Shown: one piece after another, positions 41,813-60,738 of the stretch
How the letters are laid out: each line of letters starts with the position of its first letter
Position numbering within the stretch: the stretch's first letter is position 1
Source: a bacterium
GTDB taxonomy: Bacteria; UBA10199; 2-02-FULL-50-16; JAJFLM01
Reading direction: 5' to 3'
Assembly: GCA_965216315.1 (NCBI GenBank)
Contig: CBDCFN010000016.1
Span: forward strand, 1 to 64,000
DNA: 64,000 nucleotides
The notes under the pieces: generated by a model
Seen by the model: the letters and a program-made list of their open reading frames with translations, nothing else
Databases searched by the model: none
Told to the model about the DNA's origin: nothing
Made by a program: the position numbers and the translations under genes

Positions 41813-41839
41813 TTATCGACGAAAATTGGGAAATGTTGC
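41813..41839 (-). promoter_or_regulatory. Sigma28-like promoter motif, copy 6
   Basis: GCAACATT-N11-GTCGATAA upstream of the 41764 gene. Confidence 0.7.
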
Positions 41840-41840
41840 T

Positions 41841-42755
41841 ATGTCTTTGATTCAGGCACAAGAGCTCGTGCATCGCTACGGTGACTATGTGGCCGTGGAT
41901 CATATTGATTTTACTATTAAGCAGGGGGAGTGCTTCGGCTTCTTAGGCCCCAATGGGGCCGGTAAGACGACGACGATGCGCATGCTTTACTGTCTGAGCC
42001 CCGTCCACGGCGGGGCGCTCCGCGTCTTAGATATGGACGTCATGGAACAGCCCCGGGAGATCAAGGCCCGCCTTGGGGTGGTCCCGCAAGAGGACAATCT
42101 GGATCCGGACCTGACAGTCTTGCAAAACTTACTCTTGTACGGACGTTTTTTTGGTTTGCCGCGCAGCCAAGCCATGAAGCGTGCTCAAGAATTATTAGGA
42201 TTTATGGGCTTGGCGGAAAAGAAAGACGCGCGGTTGCGTCAGTTGTCAGGTGGAATGCGGCGGCGTTTGTTGATTGCCCGCTCGCTGATTCATGGACCCG
42301 AAATCCTTATTCTAGACGAGCCGACCACCGGTCTCGATCCCCAAGCACGTTATTTGATTTGGCAACAGCTGACTCGTTTGAAAGACGAAGGTGTCACCTT
42401 GGTGTTGACCACGCATTATATGGAGGAGGCCGCCAAGTTATGCGACCGTTTGGTGATCATGGACCATGCGCGTATTTTAGTGGAAGGCGCACCGGCATCA
42501 CTTGTTCAAGAAACGGTGGGCCACGAAGTGATCGAAGTCCGCTCTTCTAATGGAAAGCTGGAGCCGCTCTCGCATCAAGTTCGGGACGGCGGTGGGGACG
42601 TGGAACACGTTGGGGATCATACTTTTTTCTTTTTTAAAGAGATGGGGCAGGCGGAGCCTTTGCTCGCGCAGCTGGCGGGTGAATTCTATGTGCATCGTCC
42701 CGCGACCTTGGAAGATGTTTTTATGAAATTAACGGGAAGGGAATTAAGGGAATGA
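41841..42755 (+). CDS. ABC-2 exporter ATP-binding subunit (NodI-like)
   Basis: GPNGAGKTT, VVPQEDNLDPD, LSGGM and LDEPTTGLDPQAR. Confidence 0.92.
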   Translation: MSLIQAQELVHRYGDYVAVDHIDFTIKQGECFGFLGPNGAGKTTTMRMLYCLSPVHGGALRVLDMDVMEQPREIKARLGVVPQEDNLDPDLTVLQNLLLYGRFFGLPRSQAMKRAQELLGFMGLAEKKDARLRQLSGGMRRRLLIARSLIHGPEILILDEPTTGLDPQARYLIWQQLTRLKDEGVTLVLTTHYMEEAAKLCDRLVIMDHARILVEGAPASLVQETVGHEVIEVRSSNGKLEPLSHQVRDGGGDVEHVGDHTFFFFKEMGQAEPLLAQLAGEFYVHRPATLEDVFMKLTGRELRE

Positions 42756-43516
42756 CCGCTTTATCCTACAGAGCGCTCTATGTGTGGTCACGCAATTTTA
42801 CGGTGTGGCAGCGCTATTGGTATACGACCTTTGTCGGTAGCCTGGGAGCACCCGCTCTCTACTTCGTCGCGATTGGGTATGGCTTGGGGAGTTTTATTCG
42901 CGAGGTCGAAGGCATGCCTTATGTCGCCTTCCTGGCGCCGGCCCTCGTCGTCACTTCGATTATGCAGGCCGCTAGTTTTGAGACCACGTATTCTTCTTAT
43001 ACGCGGATGGAAGTTCAACGGACTTACATGGCGATTGCAGTGACCCCCGTCAGTCTTCAAGAAGTCATCGCCGGGGAAATCCTATGGGCGGCAACCAAGG
43101 CAATGGTTCCGGGCGTGATCATGTTTGCGGTAACGATTGCCTTGGGTTTCGCTGAGTCGTGGACGGTCGTATGGGTCTTGCCGTTGATGCCTCTGGTCGG
43201 TTTTCTGTTTGCAACGATCGGCATGCTCATGACGAGTTTTGCCCGGGATTACGATTTTTTTACTTACTTCTTTACCCTGTTCATCGAACCCATGTTTCTT
43301 TTTTCCGGGACCTTCTTTCCGCTCAGTGCGATGCCGGTAGTGATCCAAAAGGCCGCCTGGGTCTTGCCGCTGACGCACCCGGTCTATCTCTGCCGAGCCT
43401 TCTATCGCGGAGTGACTCCGGAGGGCCTGTGGCTCCATGTGGGTTGGTTACTCCTTTTATCGACTGTCCTCTTTGTCTGGACGATTCGGCGGATGGTCAA
43501 TCGTTTGGTCGATTGA
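42752..43516 (+). CDS. ABC-2 exporter permease (NodJ-like)
   Basis: Six TM segments; FLAP, GEILWAATK and FSGTFFP. Confidence 0.9.
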   Translation: MTALSYRALYVWSRNFTVWQRYWYTTFVGSLGAPALYFVAIGYGLGSFIREVEGMPYVAFLAPALVVTSIMQAASFETTYSSYTRMEVQRTYMAIAVTPVSLQEVIAGEILWAATKAMVPGVIMFAVTIALGFAESWTVVWVLPLMPLVGFLFATIGMLMTSFARDYDFFTYFFTLFIEPMFLFSGTFFPLSAMPVVIQKAAWVLPLTHPVYLCRAFYRGVTPEGLWLHVGWLLLLSTVLFVWTIRRMVNRLVD

Positions 43517-43564: not shown

Positions 43565-43581
43565 TGTAAAATTAATTAACA
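43565..43581. promoter_or_regulatory. TGT-N11-ACA candidate activator-binding box upstream of the kinase-bEBP gene
   Basis: tgtaaaattaattaaca. Confidence 0.4.
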
Positions 43582-43611
43582 ATTTCTGCCATAATCCCTA
43601 GTGAAATTGCT

Positions 43612-46600
43612 ATGTCTCCGCGCAGTGATAAGAATATAGACATTGCCAGCTGGCAGCGTCATCGCCGGATTGGCGCCGGGGCCTTCGGGGAAGTTTGGTT
43701 GGTTGAGGATCCACTGCGCAAGCAGCCGGTGGCCCTTAAGTTTCTCAAATTGGAGCACAGTACGCCGGAAGAACTTGAGCTCTTTAAGCGCGAATTTGCA
43801 CTGCTTTCGGAATTGCGGCACACGCATCTCGCCCAAGTCTACAACTTTGGTTACTCCGAAAAAGAAGAACAATATTATTTTACCTCGGAGTTCTGTCCGG
43901 GAAGCCCTTTATTGGAGGCCCTTGAGAATCAATCGGTCAGTTATTTTGAACAGGTGCTTGTTCAAATCCTGACGGCGCTTGATTATGTCCACGGCAACGG
44001 GACGATTCATTTCGATATTAAATCGGACAATATTTTGGTGGACGATCGTGAGGGAACGCCTGCCGTTAAGATTCTCGATTTTGGAGTGGCGGCCAAACTC
44101 AAGACACTTCCTCAGGGAATGACGGGGACGCCGGCTTATATGGCGCCGGAGGTCATTACCCAAAGTGATCAGATTGATCATCGGGTCGATCTCTATTCGT
44201 TGGGCATGTTGTGTTTTCGTGCGTTGACGAAATCGCTGCCGTTTAATGCCGCTGTGATGAATGATGCGATGCAGTGGCATTTGCGAGGCAAATTGACGGA
44301 TGAAGATTGGCGCGGACATGAGGTTCCCGATTATTTACGTGAATTGACCGAAAAACTCTTGGCCAAGAATCCGTCAGAGCGATTTTCGAGTGCGCGTGTT
44401 GTCTTGAATTTTATCAATATTGCGACGGGTCAAAAGTATCAGGATGCCGAGGCCGAGCTGGAATGGAAGTTACCCGCGACCGGTCCGCTCGTCGGCAGAG
44501 AGAGCGTGTTGGAGCAATTGGAACATCTCATGGCGGGTGCTACGGCCGATGGCCAATCCATTGCGGAGTCGGCCGTCTGCTTTCTGTCCGGAGAATCGGG
44601 AATCGGCAAGAGTCGCTTAATCGACGAAATGCGGCGTCGCATCGAGCTGCAGGAGATTCCTTTCTTCAGCATTGTTTGCGACTGGCAAATTCCGGAATGG
44701 CCGCAATTGGCTGATTGGCTTCAATTGGAGTCGTTGGCCGGTGACGAACTCAGTGAAGAGTGGCAGACCAAACGGCGCGTCGATGCGATCATCGACGAAG
44801 CCAAGCAGCGGCCGCTTTGTCTCTTGATCGATGACTTCCATAAGGCGGACCGTGACATGCGTTTGTTCGTTGAAAGCCTGGCGCAACGGAGTCGAAAAGA
44901 GCGTGAAGCGGGCCATGCCGTGCCCATCTTTGCCCTCGTTGCTGGTGATACCGAACGCGATGAGGGGATGCAGATTCAGCGTTTAAGCGAGGCTCACATT
45001 ACTCAGTACACCCAACTGGTGCTCGGAGATAGTGACCGCCTTGATGATGTTGCTAAGGTGTTGCAGCAATATTCAGGCGGGCTCCCCTTGTTGATGGTCG
45101 AGGGGCTCCGTTATATGGCGCCACACATCTACCGACAAGAACCCATCGAAAACCTGATGCCGCCCCCGCAGATAGGAGATCTCTATGCTGAGCGCATCCA
45201 ATCACTGAATGAAGCCGAACGGGAGTTTTTGCTGACGATTGCGCTTGTTTTTCGACCGACCAGCCAAGAGGAACTGACAAAAATATTGGGTAAACCGCTT
45301 GCTGAGGTTGCGCAGTTAGCTGTGGCGTGTCAGCGGCAAGGATTGACTAAAGAGACGACGGCGCTTCATGATGCCAAACATTACCAGGCGTCGAGTCAAG
45401 CGCTTGCGCTGGATCTCATCCGTATCATTGATGCAGAGCAGCGGCAACGCATTCATCTCCAGATTGCTCGAGGCCTTGAACAAATTGGTTCGAGTTCAAA
45501 AGAAGAACTGGGCTTTCATATGGCGAAGGGGGGGGAGACGGAAAAAGGACGCCAGTATTACACGGAGGCGGGAGAGGCCTTGAAGCTGGCCGGTCAGATC
45601 GCATCGGCCGCTCAGTATTTTGATAAGGCGATTGAGTTGGCAACGCCTCATTCAAAGGATTGGCAGCAACTCATTGAAAAGACGACGCGGCTACTCGTCC
45701 TCTCAGGGGCGTTCGCCGACGCTTCGGAGCATCTTGAGCGTCTCAAGGATGTTCCGTCGGCCACACGTGAGGAATTAAAGGGGTGGTTGGCCTTCAAGCA
45801 ACGTCAGTTTGCCCCGGCACGTGAAGCTTATCAGAAGGCGCTGCAACTTCTGGCGGGGACGCGTTCGGTGGATCGTATCATTATTGAGAATTCGCTTGGC
45901 AATGTGGATTTGCAGGATGGCCAATTCATAGCTGCTGAGTCGCGTTTTCAGGAGACGCTCAAAGAAGAGGAAAGCCTGCCGCCAAAAGAGCTGAAGCGGG
46001 TGAGTAATAACAATTTGGGCTTGGTGTTGGCCGTGCAGGGCAAGACCGATGAGGCGGTGGTTTTTTATCAGCAGCGGCTGGCGCGTCTGGCTCCGGATCA
46101 GATGACAGATAGGATTTCGTTATTGAATGGCCTGGGTTATGCGTTGATTCAGGCCTCTCGCTATGATGAAGCGATTGAGTATTTGGATCAGGCGCGCGAA
46201 CTTGCCGAAAAGTCGGGAGCCTTGCATGCGCTCTTTTCGATTATGGGAAATCTGATTACCTCACTGCTCAAGGAAGCACGCTATGCTGAGAGCCTTCCCC
46301 TCTTGAAAAAGATTATTGGTCACCAGGAACGGCTCGGCAACAGTCGCGATGTGGCGTTCAACTTGTTACGACAAGGGAGTACCTACCTGACTTTGGGTAT
46401 GGTTGAGGCGGCCGAGGAATGTTTCGAGAAAGGGCGTCGAGTGGCCCAGTCTACAAGTGCTCCTAGCGTTGCGGCCTGGTTTCTCTTGATGAGGGGTTAT
46501 CGGGAGCGTGAATACGGAACTATCAGTAAGGCGAATGAATTTTATCAGCAGACTCTAGCCGAGGCTGAGGCGATACCGGATCAGGCTTTGGCGGACTGGG

Positions 46601-48708
46601 CCTATTATTCACTGGGAGATGTGAGTTATGAGGCCGGGGATCTGAATCAGTGCGCGGAATACGTCGCTAAGATCCATTCTGATTCTCAGGATCAGGAGTT
46701 TGAAGCGAGGCGGCGCTTATTGGCACTCAAACTGGGGGTGGCGCGTGGCGACGAGATGGACATCGACAAAGAGTTCGAACAGTTGGTCCAGACCTGCGAT
46801 CAAGGAAAGTATCGCGAAGTCCTTTGGGAGGTTTATGATGGTTGGGGCCGCATTTATTTAAAGGCTGGTCAGCAGGAACGCGCGTGCCAATTATTCAAAC
46901 AGGCTATGGAGACGCTGGATAGAATTGTCAGCACGATTCCGGAAGAATACCGCGATCGCTACATGAAGCAAAATGCGCGGGCCCGTTTGCAGCGTGACCT
47001 GAAAAAACTTGAAGCGGCACCGGCCTCGATATCGGTATGGAACGCGCCGGTGAAAAAGACCTGGCCCCAAGTCTCTTCAACCTCCGATACGATTGCCCAG
47101 GGACAATCACATTCGCAGCTCAGTGCCTCCGAACTTGAACAGTCGCTCAATTACCTACTTGAGATCAACAAACGCATGGTTTCCGAACGAGACCCGCAAC
47201 GGCTGCTTGAAGAGATTATGGATACGGCTATTGAGATGGCAGGAACCGAAGAAGGTTTGTTGCTCATTCCCAATGCCGCTGATGAACTGGAGACGCGCAT
47301 TGCGCGCAACATTAACAAATCAGATATCGATCGTGTGCATTTTTCCGAGTCGGTTGCCCGTGAGGTTTTTGCAAGTGGTGAAGCAATTTTTTCGATTAAT
47401 GCGATGTCAGATACCAAGCTCAGTAGTTTTGAGAGCGTTGTGAGTCGTGGACTCATGACGGTTATTTGCCTTCCCCTCAAGATTCAAAACAAAGTGATCG
47501 GTGTTATTTACATGGGGACGAAGAAACATCTCATCGTACCAGATCAATTGCTACGTATCTTGCAGGCATTCGCCGACCTTTCGTCACTTGCCTTGCGCAA
47601 TGCGGAGATATTCCAGAATCAGGCCAGGGACAACGAGCGGCTCCAAGCGGATCTTTCGTTGACCCAGCAGGAATTAGAGGAAAAGGCCGAACAGCTTCAG
47701 GAGCTTGAGTCGCTTGCATCCGTTGCCCCGCGCAAGACAGTCTTTCCTTATGAAGAGATTATTGGAAAGTCCTCTCAGATGGAACAGGTTCTCCAGACCT
47801 TGGACAAGATCACGAATGCCAAGGTGCCGGTATTCTTGTTCGGCGAGACGGGGACGGGTAAAGAACTGCTGGCGCGAGCCCTGCACCAGAATAGTATTCG
47901 CGCCCGCCATGCCTTTGTTGCGATCAATTGTTCGGCTTTTACCGAGACCATTTTGGAAAGCGAGCTCTTTGGCTCAGTCAAGGGGGCCTTTACCGGAGCG
48001 GATCGGGACCGCAAGGGGCTGTTTGAACAGGCCCATCAAGGGACGCTCTTTTTAGATGAAGTGGCGGATATGAGCCTGAGCATGCAGGCGAAATTATTAC
48101 GGGTGATCCAAGAGCAGGAATTGATGCGTGTCGGTGGGCGAGAGCCGATCAAGGTCGATGTGCGCATCGTTGCAGCGGCCAATCGCGACCTGAAGAAAAT
48201 GGTCCATGACGGCGAATTTCGCGAGGATCTCTATTTTCGCCTCGCGGGAGTGACGATCAAGTTGCCTCCCTTGCGCGATCGGCGTGATGACATTCCATTG
48301 CTCGCCAAGCATCTCATCGATAAAATTCGCAACACTAATAACATCAAATCAGAATTAAGGCTTTCTAAAGAGGCTTTACGCATTCTTTTGCAGCATGGAT
48401 GGCCCGGTAATATTCGCGAGCTGGAGCAATGTCTCACCAATGCCTGCCTCTTTGCAGAGAGCGAGGTGATTGAGCCGGAACAGATCATTTTGGCAGGGAC
48501 GATGGTGACAGAGGCCAAACCGAGTCTATCGACCCCGGCCTCCCTCATCGAATTCAACCCCGAGCGCAGTCTCGAAGACTATGAGTGTGAGATTATCCGC
48601 CGGACCGTCGAGTTCTACGATGGCAACAAGAGCGAGGCCTCCCGTCGCCTGGGGCTCTCGCGACTGACCCTATATAAAAAATTGAAAGCTCCTTCATCAG
48701 TTCATTAA
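43612..48708 (+). CDS. Ser/Thr kinase - AAA ATPase - TPR - GAF - sigma54 activator - Fis HTH fusion
   Basis: Kinase IGAGAFGEV, VALK, HFDIKSDN, DFG, YMAPE; P-loop GESGIGKS; activator GETGTGKE, GAFTGA, FLDEV, WPGNIRELE; HTH NKSEASRRLGLSRLTLY. Confidence 0.93.
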   Translation: MSPRSDKNIDIASWQRHRRIGAGAFGEVWLVEDPLRKQPVALKFLKLEHSTPEELELFKREFALLSELRHTHLAQVYNFGYSEKEEQYYFTSEFCPGSPLLEALENQSVSYFEQVLVQILTALDYVHGNGTIHFDIKSDNILVDDREGTPAVKILDFGVAAKLKTLPQGMTGTPAYMAPEVITQSDQIDHRVDLYSLGMLCFRALTKSLPFNAAVMNDAMQWHLRGKLTDEDWRGHEVPDYLRELTEKLLAKNPSERFSSARVVLNFINIATGQKYQDAEAELEWKLPATGPLVGRESVLEQLEHLMAGATADGQSIAESAVCFLSGESGIGKSRLIDEMRRRIELQEIPFFSIVCDWQIPEWPQLADWLQLESLAGDELSEEWQTKRRVDAIIDEAKQRPLCLLIDDFHKADRDMRLFVESLAQRSRKEREAGHAVPIFALVAGDTERDEGMQIQRLSEAHITQYTQLVLGDSDRLDDVAKVLQQYSGGLPLLMVEGLRYMAPHIYRQEPIENLMPPPQIGDLYAERIQSLNEAEREFLLTIALVFRPTSQEELTKILGKPLAEVAQLAVACQRQGLTKETTALHDAKHYQASSQALALDLIRIIDAEQRQRIHLQIARGLEQIGSSSKEELGFHMAKGGETEKGRQYYTEAGEALKLAGQIASAAQYFDKAIELATPHSKDWQQLIEKTTRLLVLSGAFADASEHLERLKDVPSATREELKGWLAFKQRQFAPAREAYQKALQLLAGTRSVDRIIIENSLGNVDLQDGQFIAAESRFQETLKEEESLPPKELKRVSNNNLGLVLAVQGKTDEAVVFYQQRLARLAPDQMTDRISLLNGLGYALIQASRYDEAIEYLDQARELAEKSGALHALFSIMGNLITSLLKEARYAESLPLLKKIIGHQERLGNSRDVAFNLLRQGSTYLTLGMVEAAEECFEKGRRVAQSTSAPSVAAWFLLMRGYREREYGTISKANEFYQQTLAEAEAIPDQALADWAYYSLGDVSYEAGDLNQCAEYVAKIHSDSQDQEFEARRRLLALKLGVARGDEMDIDKEFEQLVQTCDQGKYREVLWEVYDGWGRIYLKAGQQERACQLFKQAMETLDRIVSTIPEEYRDRYMKQNARARLQRDLKKLEAAPASISVWNAPVKKTWPQVSSTSDTIAQGQSHSQLSASELEQSLNYLLEINKRMVSERDPQRLLEEIMDTAIEMAGTEEGLLLIPNAADELETRIARNINKSDIDRVHFSESVAREVFASGEAIFSINAMSDTKLSSFESVVSRGLMTVICLPLKIQNKVIGVIYMGTKKHLIVPDQLLRILQAFADLSSLALRNAEIFQNQARDNERLQADLSLTQQELEEKAEQLQELESLASVAPRKTVFPYEEIIGKSSQMEQVLQTLDKITNAKVPVFLFGETGTGKELLARALHQNSIRARHAFVAINCSAFTETILESELFGSVKGAFTGADRDRKGLFEQAHQGTLFLDEVADMSLSMQAKLLRVIQEQELMRVGGREPIKVDVRIVAAANRDLKKMVHDGEFREDLYFRLAGVTIKLPPLRDRRDDIPLLAKHLIDKIRNTNNIKSELRLSKEALRILLQHGWPGNIRELEQCLTNACLFAESEVIEPEQIILAGTMVTEAKPSLSTPASLIEFNPERSLEDYECEIIRRTVEFYDGNKSEASRRLGLSRLTLYKKLKAPSSVH

Positions 48709-48752
48709 TTATCCAATACCTGCTTAATTGCTGAACAACCTGTTAAACAAGC

Positions 48753-48769
48753 TGTCCAGAATCTAAACA
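48753..48769. promoter_or_regulatory. TGT-N11-ACA candidate upstream activator sequence
   Basis: tgtccagaatctaaaca, about 73 bp upstream of the sigma54 -24 element. Confidence 0.5.
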
Positions 48770-48841
48770 GTGTCAACTGGGACCTGCGCTCCCCACACAT
48801 GAGAACTTCCTGTAATTATTGAAGAATTTATTTCACCTGTC

Positions 48842-48857
48842 TGGCACGCAACGTGCA
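48842..48857 (+). promoter_or_regulatory. Sigma54 (-24/-12) promoter
   Basis: TGGCAC-gcaac-GTGCA directly downstream of a GAFTGA-type activator gene. Confidence 0.75.
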
Positions 48858-48893
48858 TTAACATTGGGTGGTTACTCGATAAGGAGATTAGAG

Positions 48894-48992
48894 ATGAGGG
48901 GTTCAATAATCACAAAATTGCTTGTCGGAACGGTAATGGTTGCCAGTCTGATGATCGGCTTCGGCCAATGGAATCTGAAGATTGGTAAGTAA
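48894..48992 (+). CDS. 32-aa hydrophobic small protein MRGSIITKLLVGTVMVASLMIGFGQWNLKIGK
   Basis: AAGGAG RBS at 48881-48886; first ORF after the sigma54 promoter; below the ORF-track length cutoff. Confidence 0.6.
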   Translation: MRGSIITKLLVGTVMVASLMIGFGQWNLKIGK

Positions 48993-49021
48993 GGACGAGC
49001 GGGGAATCAAGGAGAGCTATC

Positions 49022-49225
49022 ATGCACGTTACTCATCAATCACATCATCAAGGAGCGATTTGGTCGTTGATTTACTGGGTCGAAGATCATCTTCATTTTA
49101 AAAAGCATGCATCACGGCATGCGGCATCGCACCATATTCGCAAGGCTCATAACGAGTTTTTGGATGATGTCAGCTTTTTTAAAGATGACGAAGAGTTTGA
49201 TGCATACATGCAGGACTTGGGCTGA
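49022..49225 (+). CDS. 67-aa His-rich small protein with an acidic tail
   Basis: AAGGAG RBS; MHVTHQSHH...HLHFKKHASRHAASHH...DDEEFD. Confidence 0.7.
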   Translation: MHVTHQSHHQGAIWSLIYWVEDHLHFKKHASRHAASHHIRKAHNEFLDDVSFFKDDEEFDAYMQDLG

Positions 49226-49298
49226 CGCTACCCTTGATTGGGCCTAGGGGGCCCAAGTCCTCCTCCCCAGTCATAAAATGACAATGGAAAGGGTGATA

Positions 49299-49397
49299 AT
49301 GTTCCAGTGGTTTAAAGACGTCGCAATTGTCACCGTGATTATAACCGGCTCATTGATATTAAAATTATTGGTCCCCGCATCGAAAGAGGAAGAGTGA
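49299..49397 (+). CDS. 32-aa single-TM small protein MFQWFKDVAIVTVIITGSLILKLLVPASKEEE
   Basis: GAAAGGG upstream; in-frame alternative ATGs at 49278 and 49284. Confidence 0.5.
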   Translation: MFQWFKDVAIVTVIITGSLILKLLVPASKEEE

Positions 49398-49414
49398 TTT
49401 AAAGGAGTGTATCA

Positions 49415-50698
49415 CTAAGGGTTCATGCGGTGGAAGTTCACGCGGCGATTGCGTGCCCGGCCTTCTCGAGTGTCGTTGGAGGCCGCCGGTTCATCTTCGC
49501 CGACCCCGGTCGGCGTCAACGTGACGTTTGCCGGGATGCCGCGTTGATTGAGATAATCCGCGACTTTGCGGGCGCGCTTTTCAGAGAGGCGCTGGTTGTA
49601 GTCAGCCCGACCGCGACTGTCCGTATGCCCCCGGACCTCCAAGGGTCCGACGTGGGGCTTTTTATTTATTTTAGTGGAGAGGTCATCAAGTGTTTCTCTC
49701 GAGTCTTGGTCGAGACGCGAGCGATTGGAATTAAAGTAAACATTGGTTCCTACAATATCGCCGTAGTGTTCACGCGCGCGTTCACGTCTTTTTTGGAATT
49801 GATGCCGAAACGCGAGCCGCAGAAAACCACGGAACTTAGGGGCCTTGACTCCGCAGACGCCACAACTGCCGCCACCCGCGGCGAGACTAAAACCGGACTC
49901 GCCAATGTCCCACCGGACTCCGCCAAGAAACTCTACCGGGCTCTCTTCTTTTTCACTGAAAAAGGCTCGATAGGCTGTGTTGGCTTGTACTTCTGCGGAT
50001 AAAGTGACGTTGTTGACGGGGCGTAGTGAAAGGCCGAGGTTACTTAAAAAGCGGTGGTTCATGTTGACGTTGTTGATAATTACACGTTCTCGAAACTCCG
50101 AACCGACATTCAAGGCCAAGCGGACGTACTCATTGAATTTTACGTCACCAATCACCCGCATCCCACCCAAGATGCGTGATTCACCGAGATAGACTTCGTC
50201 CCCGTTGAAAGGAATGATAATGAAGGGTTCGAGGGCAAGCCCAAAGGTATGGACATCGGCGTTGACGAGGCGGATTTTCGTAGTGAACCGCAAATCCCCC
50301 ACTCGTCGACGGGTACTGAGGGGTGCCGCCGGGGCTACGGTCGGGTCGGAGACACGGGCATAGCTGAAGATGGGAATTGAGACGCCGATCTGCCAGTTAT
50401 CGAAAAAACCAAAGCCGAGTGAAAGTGTATGGGCCAGGTACTTGGCGACAACATCGGGGACAGCGGCACCGGTCGTTGTCGTTCCTTTAATAGGCCGGTG
50501 GGCGTAGGTGTTGTCGAGTTCGATAAAGAACTCGCGTTGTTTCAGTCCTTCGCTCGAAGACATGCTGAAGTAGTTGCGATCTCCGACGGAAGGCCACAAA
50601 TCGTAAGCGGAGAATCGCGTCGATGTCGCATGGCTCAATTGTGGAATGATACAGCTGAAAAGCAGCGCGATGCTGCCCGCTAAGAATCGCTTCGACAC
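49415..50698 (-). CDS. Outer-membrane beta-barrel plus OmpA-like peptidoglycan-binding domain protein
   Basis: Signal peptide; amphipathic beta strands; GHTDSRG, NQRLSEKRA and NRRV. Confidence 0.88.
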   Translation of the reverse strand: MSKRFLAGSIALLFSCIIPQLSHATSTRFSAYDLWPSVGDRNYFSMSSSEGLKQREFFIELDNTYAHRPIKGTTTTGAAVPDVVAKYLAHTLSLGFGFFDNWQIGVSIPIFSYARVSDPTVAPAAPLSTRRRVGDLRFTTKIRLVNADVHTFGLALEPFIIIPFNGDEVYLGESRILGGMRVIGDVKFNEYVRLALNVGSEFRERVIINNVNMNHRFLSNLGLSLRPVNNVTLSAEVQANTAYRAFFSEKEESPVEFLGGVRWDIGESGFSLAAGGGSCGVCGVKAPKFRGFLRLAFRHQFQKRRERAREHYGDIVGTNVYFNSNRSRLDQDSRETLDDLSTKINKKPHVGPLEVRGHTDSRGRADYNQRLSEKRARKVADYLNQRGIPANVTLTPTGVGEDEPAASNDTREGRARNRRVNFHRMNP

Positions 50699-60722: not shown

Positions 60723-60738
60723 TGGCACGCTCTTTGCT
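60723..60738 (+). promoter_or_regulatory. Sigma54 (-24/-12) promoter
   Basis: TGGCAC-gctct-TTGCT, a perfect consensus match. Confidence 0.85.

Follow-up and report, generated by a model that had tools for sequence, protein, structure and literature searches.

What does a bacterial regulator of 1698 amino acids (aa) switch on, when the open reading frames (ORFs) directly behind it are 32, 67 and 32 codons long? The question is raised by a locus in a window of 64,000 nucleotides (nt), that is, positions 1-64000 of contig C16 (G000:C16) in a host genome of 2.96 Mb, 51% G+C and 16 contigs, of which 8% is non-coding. Between the gene of the regulator and a downstream OmpA-family gene lies an intergenic stretch of 706 nt (48709-49414), in which a promoter-like site of the sigma-54 type is followed by the three short frames, ORF1 to ORF3. 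A reading made earlier from the letters alone (the sequence-only reading) had described the regulator as a STAND-like one-component sensor whose output is only small peptides. With a chance that we put somewhat above even, the locus is a cis-wired sigma-54 cassette in which the activator drives the adjacent promoter of a small-protein operon. The regulator and its domains are placed as follows.

43612-48708, plus strand: gene of the enhancer-binding protein, 1698 aa (ORF translation and Pfam)
43654-44400, plus strand: Pkinase domain, residues 15-263 (Pfam, 5e-49)
44485-44892, plus strand: AAA_16/STAND P-loop domain, residues 292-427 (Pfam, 1.1e-18)
about 45589-47001, plus strand: TPR/MalT-like array, residues about 660-1130 (Pfam)
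47185-47595, plus strand: GAF_2 domain, residues 1192-1328 (Pfam)
47758-48486 including AAA_lid_14, plus strand: Sigma54_activat AAA+ domain (PF00158), residues 1383-1549 (Pfam, 3.8e-72)
48568-48690, plus strand: HTH_8 domain, residues 1653-1693 (Pfam, 9e-10)

The kinase, P-loop and GAFTGA motifs that the sequence-only reading had called intact are all found in the translation: GAGAFGEV, VALK, HFDIKSDN, DFG and MAPE in the kinase domain, GESGIGKS as the STAND P-loop, and GETGTGKE, LFLDEV and GAFTGA in the sigma-54 AAA+ domain. Judged by these motifs the Pkinase domain would qualify as a Hanks-type Ser/Thr kinase, with a catalytic loop (HFDIKSDN) of the non-RD type. A STAND NTPase is marked in Pfam by nSTAND6 (1.8e-7) together with AAA_16 and the repeat array that follows, in which the TPR_MalT match (2.1e-9) stays under its own cut-off of 45 bits. 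An AAA+ domain with Walker A/B motifs and GAFTGA, a C-terminal helix-turn-helix (HTH) and a host that possesses sigma-54 characterize an enhancer-binding protein, and the closest solved chains for the C-terminal third are NifA, ZraR and NtrC1. Assignment of the 1698-aa protein as a one-component kinase/STAND/TPR/GAF enhancer-binding protein is thus supported at the level of domains, and the Pfam architecture bears out the earlier picture of a STAND-like one-component sensor. At the junction of TPR array and GAF domain the gene has no internal in-frame SD sequence with an ATG.

The host is equipped for such a regulator. It carries rpoN (Sigma54_DBD, 9.2e-62, at C16:834420-834899) and 56 canonical TGGCAC-N5-TTGCW sites, where about 3 would be expected by chance by our estimate. 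These sites are mostly intergenic, typically 20-70 nt ahead of a Shine-Dalgarno (SD) sequence and its ORF, and the products behind them are mostly lipoproteins or secreted proteins, which fits the common link between sigma-54 and cell-envelope function described in the abstract of PMC4551910. One canonical promoter of this kind, TGGCACGCTCTTTGCT (25.8 bits), lies elsewhere in the window at 60723-60738 on the plus strand, with an IHF-like TTCAAATAGTTA upstream and, 48 nt downstream, a 117-aa ORF with a signal-peptide-like start. The elements between the activator gene and the OmpA-family gene are the following.

48752-48770, unstranded: inverted repeat CTGTCCAG-AAT-CTAAACAG (CTGT-N11-ACAG), 72-90 nt upstream of the promoter
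48813-48839, unstranded: AT-rich tract, directly upstream of the -24 element
48842-48857, plus strand: candidate sigma-54-type promoter TGGCACGCAACGTGCA, GG at 48843-48844 and GC at 48855-48856
48894-48992, plus strand: ORF1, 32 aa, hydrophobic, predicted single-pass; SD AAGGAG at 48881-48886, 7 nt ahead of the ATG
49022-49225, plus strand: ORF2, 67 aa, soluble; SD AAGGAG at 49009-49014, 7 nt ahead of the ATG
49238-49256, plus strand: GC-rich hairpin, 7-bp stem, no T tract
49299-49397, plus strand: ORF3, 32 aa, hydrophobic; weaker SD AAGGGTG; the least supported part

The TGGCAC-N5-GTGCA site that had been noticed about 130 bp downstream of the activator gene is indeed there, 133 nt past the stop codon and 36 nt ahead of the ATG of ORF1. 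TGGCACGCAACGTGCA agrees with TGGCAC-N5-TTGCW at 11 of 12 positions, the sole change being G for T before GC, and scores 14.4 bits on a matrix trained on the genome's own 56 canonical sites. The 36 nt ahead of its TGGCAC are 72% A+T, with only a weak IHF-like match; the corresponding mean for 71 sigma-54 sites is 67%, and for the genome as a whole the median is 50% and the 99th percentile 72%. The intergenic position of the 48842 site close to an SD sequence and an ORF, with an AT tract and a palindrome upstream, is as expected of a sigma-54 promoter, and transcription from it is predicted to start at about 48867-48869. No sigma-70-like promoter was found on the plus strand ahead of ORF1.

The palindrome at 48752-48770 is a candidate upstream activating sequence at which the activator might bind. 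CTGT-N11-ACAG occurs 20 times in the genome, and three of the 20 copies are followed by a sigma-54 core site at a distance of 62-90 nt, as against about 0.3 expected; the inner sequences of these three differ. The other two are located at C2:2145 (62 nt upstream of the site C2:2083) and at C16:1294948 (79 nt upstream of C16:1295027), and an activator gene is present neither at C16:1295027 nor on the 2.2-kb contig C2. NifA binds TGT-N10-ACA, which the TGT-N11-ACA of the candidate site resembles.

That the activator would serve the promoter next to it, as proposed earlier, is made likely by comparison within the genome. Among its 17 clear sigma-54 activators, eight are giant proteins that all carry Pkinase, TPR, GAF, Sigma54 and HTH_8 (AAA_16 being reported in six), and every one of these kinase-fused activators has an outward-pointing sigma-54-like site (more than 12 bits, within 1 kb of the gene) at a distance of 63-921 nt, six of the sites being divergent and upstream and two co-directional and downstream. 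Among the 764 ORFs with 400 aa or more the same holds for only 64 (8.4%), against which eight out of eight gives P ~2e-9. In other genera, 20 giant activators were sampled as open frames of at least 1630 aa, chosen blind to their flanks and checked for a kinase by DFG in the first 300 residues; 12 had, within 1 kb, an outward-pointing site that agreed with the consensus at 10 or more of its 12 positions. Adjacency is hence a strong rule in this genome and frequent in the class, and it is not universal, given the eight of eight here, the 12 of 20 in other genera and none of the four closest homologues discussed below. Two observations on activators may be added. Exact GAFTGA is kept in only six of the 20 sampled proteins (L061-L080), and the remaining ones must carry variants of the loop; and at G000:C16:68765-73006 three tandem activator genes (468, 480 and 472 aa) have no sigma-54-like site within 4 kb.

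The small ORFs and the hairpin were all recovered where the sequence-only reading had placed them, ORF1 and ORF2 with their AAGGAG signals. The motif AAGGAG-N5-9-ATG occurs 263 times in 5.9 Mb (both strands), so that two AAGGAG-N7-ATG copies 128 nt apart are not expected by chance, and by codon usage ORF1, ORF2 and ORF3 each rank within the top 5-10% when compared with spurious ORFs of equal length. By their best 17-aa Kyte-Doolittle windows (2.15 and 2.42), ORF1 and ORF3 are predicted to span the membrane. For ORF1, a contig of a relative (151 nt, 87% identical, depth 2.1, run X3) covers 48841-48975 with 17 differences. The five visible changes within ORF1, at 48905 (TCA>TCG), 48911 (ATC>ATA), 48929 (GGA>GGC), 48935 (GTA>GTG) and 48941 (GTT>GTC), are all third-position and synonymous, for which the chance by position alone is (1/3)^5, about 0.004; the leader is changed at 48876 and 48878, and the SD sequence and ATG of ORF1 are unchanged. 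ORF3 shares 7 of 10 residues with ORF1 (GS[IL]I.KLLV), which is weak evidence. Pfam and NCBIfam gave nothing above cut-off for ORF1-3, no paralogues of them were found in the genome, and a comparison of 48709-49414 at the DNA level with 20 relatives returned chance-level matches only.

ORF2 contains 11 His and 11 acidic residues, ends in an acidic tail and has a best hydropathy window of 0.25. A word-based search of 5.8 billion proteins found ORF2 itself only, whereas an exhaustive HMMER search of 1.84 billion representatives detected two homologues, one of 75 aa (43% identity, E 1.4e-8) and one of 70 aa (35% identity, E 1e-4), aligned end to end with 17 invariant columns. By this alignment ORF2 founds a family of three members, in which the C-terminal motif FFKD-x5-[LF]DAYMQD is conserved. 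A profile search with ORF2 yielded nothing beyond these two; in 60 relatives the best E was 0.013, with weak matches inside unrelated long frames; none of 90 pattern matches was confirmed when the ORF2 alignment was compared with GTDB genome contigs; and the ESM Atlas gave no usable match. Of the ORFs proposed as genes, then, ORF1 (by its synonymous changes) and ORF2 (by its homologues) look like real genes, and ORF3 is without comparative support. The expectation that standard annotation would miss them holds for ORF1 and ORF3, which are absent from the NCBI/ENA protein collection, and fails for ORF2, which is already there as a singleton. Metal binding, suggested on account of the His residues, is weakened by the comparison: only H8 and H25 (two of 11) are invariant, and a metal-binding, His-rich protein is rejected as a family trait since His-richness is not kept. 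A decayed lipoprotein gene is likewise rejected on the strength of the end-to-end alignment of ORF2 to proteins of its own size and the synonymous-only changes in ORF1.

Over its last 26 residues ORF2 matches the C-terminal end of the DUF2852 profile (PF11014, positions 89-114 of 116), and KDREEFDAYMQ of a metagenome DUF2852 protein (L053) is common to it. By profile score ORF2 is nevertheless not a DUF2852 member, since it reaches 12.5 bits (E 0.16) against a cut-off of 22.5; it also lacks the N-terminal membrane segment of that family. The C-terminal motif recurs (FFK...YMQEL, E 7.6e-5) in a 36-aa ORF of genome G079, 138 nt behind a c-di-GMP-I-GGC riboswitch of 67.5 bits. That locus (L051, G079:C111:16038-19130, minus strand) holds two such aptamers (RF03167, 68.8 and 67.5 bits), and the other one overlaps a 273-aa ORF at its start, when that ORF is read at its longest, and is therefore probably the leader of that gene. 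Four runs, all from one study, contain the stretch, and in the contigs of three of them the G-run of the ORF1-ORF2 spacer (49000-49004) carries an extra G. With this 5-G spacer ORF1 and ORF2 fall in one frame, with only the TAA (48990-48992) and 10 codons between them, and a fused form would join a membrane segment to a DUF2852-like tail.

Taken together, the 1698-aa protein would be a cytoplasmic one-component sensor in which the kinase, the STAND NTPase, the TPR array and the GAF domain keep a NifA-like AAA+ module switched off in the absence of a signal. Once signalled, the protein would assemble on DNA via HTH_8, probably at the palindrome 48752-48770, and ATP hydrolysis would open the complex of the sigma-54 holoenzyme at 48842-48857. 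A transcript of about 0.5 kb, starting at about 48868, would encode ORF1 and ORF2 and possibly ORF3: a membrane microprotein, a three-helix cytoplasmic protein and a second membrane microprotein. These would most likely act at or on the inner membrane, because the sigma-54 targets of this genome are overwhelmingly envelope proteins. The analysis shows the architecture and motifs of the protein, rpoN, the promoter-like site with its typical geometry, the adjacency of activators and sites across the genome, the constraint on ORF1 and the homologues of ORF2. The activator-promoter pairing, the binding site, transcription, translation and all functions of the cassette are what we infer, and as far as sequence can tell the tiny operon is very probably under the control of the 1698-aa activator. 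The genes on either side of the cassette are the following.

41826-43516, plus strand: ABC ATPase and ABC-2 permease, upstream neighbours of the activator gene
49415-50698, minus strand: OmpA-family gene, convergent and downstream, its stop codon beginning 18 nt past the end of ORF3

Several results weigh against the cis-wired cassette. The T before GC is near-invariant in this genome, TGGCACGCAACGTGCA has G instead, and its rank is only about 99th of 228 candidates; sites with a base other than T there are barely enriched (15, as against about 8 by chance by our estimate), and the other two of the genome's three GTGC variants lie inside coding sequence. A terminator between the activator gene and the 48842 site was looked for and none was found, so read-through could express the small ORFs. 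It may be, then, that the promoter-like site is a chance, non-functional one and that the ORFs are expressed by read-through or from an unrecognised promoter, not as a regulated output. We hold this to be unlikely, because the site is the sole intergenic GTGC variant, falls within the non-coding 8% of the genome at a typical 36 nt from the ATG of ORF1, has an AT-rich upstream tract as at genuine sites, and lies next to an activator whose sisters all (seven of seven) have an adjacent site. As to the products, the constraint on ORF1 comes from one contig of depth 2.1, in which only 48876-48941 is seen in full and 10 of the 17 differences, near the ends, are unseen; the AlphaFold model of ORF2 has its three helices at low confidence (pLDDT 64, pTM 0.28); and ORF3 is without homologue or paralogue.

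The closest relatives of the activator also count against the pairing. The four closest full-length homologues, in G003, G017, G020 and G031, have identities of 29%, 44% (that of G031), 45% and 47%, and a sigma-54 site within 1 kb is absent from all four. In G003 and G017 there is none over 1.5 kb on the upstream and 3 kb on the downstream side, and the nearest lies 1478 nt upstream in G031 and about 1076 nt downstream in G020. The small ORFs, for which synteny next to orthologous activators had been suggested as a check, are absent at all four, and the neighbours of the present locus (the ABC transporter pair, the OmpA-family gene and a 459-aa ORF) are not syntenic beside them. The lack of an adjacent site at these homologues would fit a promoter that is real and served by another of the 17 activators, the 1698-aa protein having its targets elsewhere, for example at the other CTGT-N11-ACAG promoters, and C2:2083 and C16:1295027 do carry that palindrome at a similar distance. 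The eight-of-eight adjacency (P ~2e-9 against background) and the differing inner sequences of the three palindromes make this quite improbable. There is, finally, the idea that the transcript acts mainly as an RNA, continuing as an antisense RNA into the OmpA-family gene that faces it (49415-50698, minus strand), with ORF3 and perhaps the others incidental. No terminator-like site was found past ORF3; the hairpin past ORF2 is without a T tract and therefore not a canonical terminator, and its fold over 86 nt (-31.4 kcal/mol, z -1.8) is unremarkable. Set against this, ORF1 changes by synonymous substitution only, the homologues of ORF2 align end to end, two perfect AAGGAG-N7-ATG signals are present and Rfam has no match in 48600-49500, and we regard an RNA as very improbable indeed.

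Two matters concerning the neighbours belong here. The upstream ABC-2 exporter, considered as a handler of the peptides, was dropped because the neighbours are not syntenic at the closest homologues. Downstream of the G031 homologue (44% identity; L038, G031:C32:35800-38900, reverse) there are two ORFs, of 71 and 77 aa, which resemble each other by eye and are followed by genes resembling rplU, rpmA, obg and proB; ORF1-3 are unrelated to them.

The cis-wired cassette can also be set among its kin. The seven sister cassettes of this genome have products of 97-500 aa, mostly lipoproteins, so that an output of small proteins alone sets this copy apart and is no trait of the class. Thus the earlier claim of an output made only of small peptides is upheld for this locus and does not extend to its sisters. 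The paralogous cassette at C16:2025647-2030368 has the same Pkinase/AAA_16/TPR/GAF/Sigma54/HTH_8 build, with sigma-54 sites alongside and small genes of unassigned function behind them; it has two flanking modules with products of 98-136 aa, whereas the present copy has a single module, on its downstream side, with products of 32, 67 and 32 aa, and the products of the paralogous cassette bear no sequence similarity to ORF1-3. Lipoproteins of 450-750 aa that share an N-terminal motif are the most frequent targets in other genera. The motif SAPP..LPAP.T..ITV is shared by lipoproteins of 450-600 aa at C16:1010763 and 2041876 and at L077-L080, and the lipoproteins that bear it may be a conserved target family of kinase-fused activators. 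A sigma-54 site at C16:1012455 is followed by a 35-aa hydrophobic ORF (SD AAGGAGG) and then by a 341-aa lipoprotein; the 35-aa ORF is possibly a second membrane microprotein under sigma-54 control.

Beyond this genome the architecture is widespread in metagenomes. A homologue search returned 872 proteins at E <=1e-50, many with Pkinase, AAA_16, TPR, GAF, Sigma54 and HTH_8, from uncultured 'Deltaproteobacteria'-like lineages, Planctomycetes, Acidobacteriota and others, which their sources name 'sigma 54-interacting transcriptional regulator', 'Nif-specific regulatory protein' or 'serine/threonine-protein kinase PknK'. Kinase-plus-STAND activators are thus common in these groups, yet the literature search found no studied representative and no paper on kinase-fused sigma-54 activators. 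The account of the myxobacterial kinome by Perez et al. in 2008 may describe kinase-activator fusions. In passages of PMC8538405 and PMC8436480 the kinase-activator fusion is not treated.

The strict adjacency provides eight sensor-promoter pairs usable for tests in heterologous hosts, of which the present cassette is the simplest and suits the question of small membrane proteins under tight signal control. A more far-reaching proposal, which we advance as speculative and rather doubtful, is that kinase/STAND/TPR/GAF activators form a large unstudied sensor class hard-wired to neighbouring promoters, that the output here is wholly microproteins and that the ORF2 motif (FFK-x6-LD-x-YMQ) is a portable signalling or adaptor peptide. 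If the motif were portable, different sensory systems would switch it on, as with the C-terminal ends of DUF2852 and the riboswitch ORF of G079. In a bolder variant that builds on the 5-G spacer, read-through of the TAA would give a membrane-anchored, DUF2852-like protein.

Among known systems, NifA is the nearest to the C-terminal third of the protein, by family (TIGR01817 as top match, 389.2 bits over residues 1177-1652, with the equivalog cut-off of 528.85 not reached) and by solved structure (PDB 9qq6, 5.6e-75). With NifA, NorR and FhlA this third has in common a GAF domain, a sigma-54 AAA+ domain with GAFTGA and a Fis-type HTH; unlike them, the 1698-aa protein adds about 1150 N-terminal residues (kinase, STAND NTPase and TPRs), and unlike the situation of NifA there are no nif genes near its gene and the output is small ORFs. 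The N-terminal two thirds correspond to PknK of M. tuberculosis and MalT of E. coli in their Pkinase, AAA_16 P-loop and MalT-like TPR, the combination of Pkinase, P-loop and MalT-like TPR being the architecture of PknK. The output domain here is instead a sigma-54 AAA+ module fused in the same chain, not a LuxR-type HTH, nor is the output the phosphorylation of a separate regulator.

PspF is strongly related in sequence through its AAA+ domain (2vii, 1.5e-55), although PspF is without sensor domains and the 1698-aa protein has four. The E. coli PspF gene adjoins the sigma-54 promoter of pspABCDE, which encodes a small helical cytoplasmic or peripheral protein and small single-pass membrane proteins. 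The likeness thus lies in an activator gene beside the sigma-54 promoter of small helical and small membrane proteins; the difference is that PspA and every other Pfam family score above E 0.01 for ORF1-3, and that ORF2 has 67 aa. Seen against these systems, the wiring is that of an ordinary switch, and novelty is confined to the tiny proteins: the circuit is of an ordinary sigma-54 kind, joined to a sensor class that is unstudied and to a small-protein-only output that is unusual.

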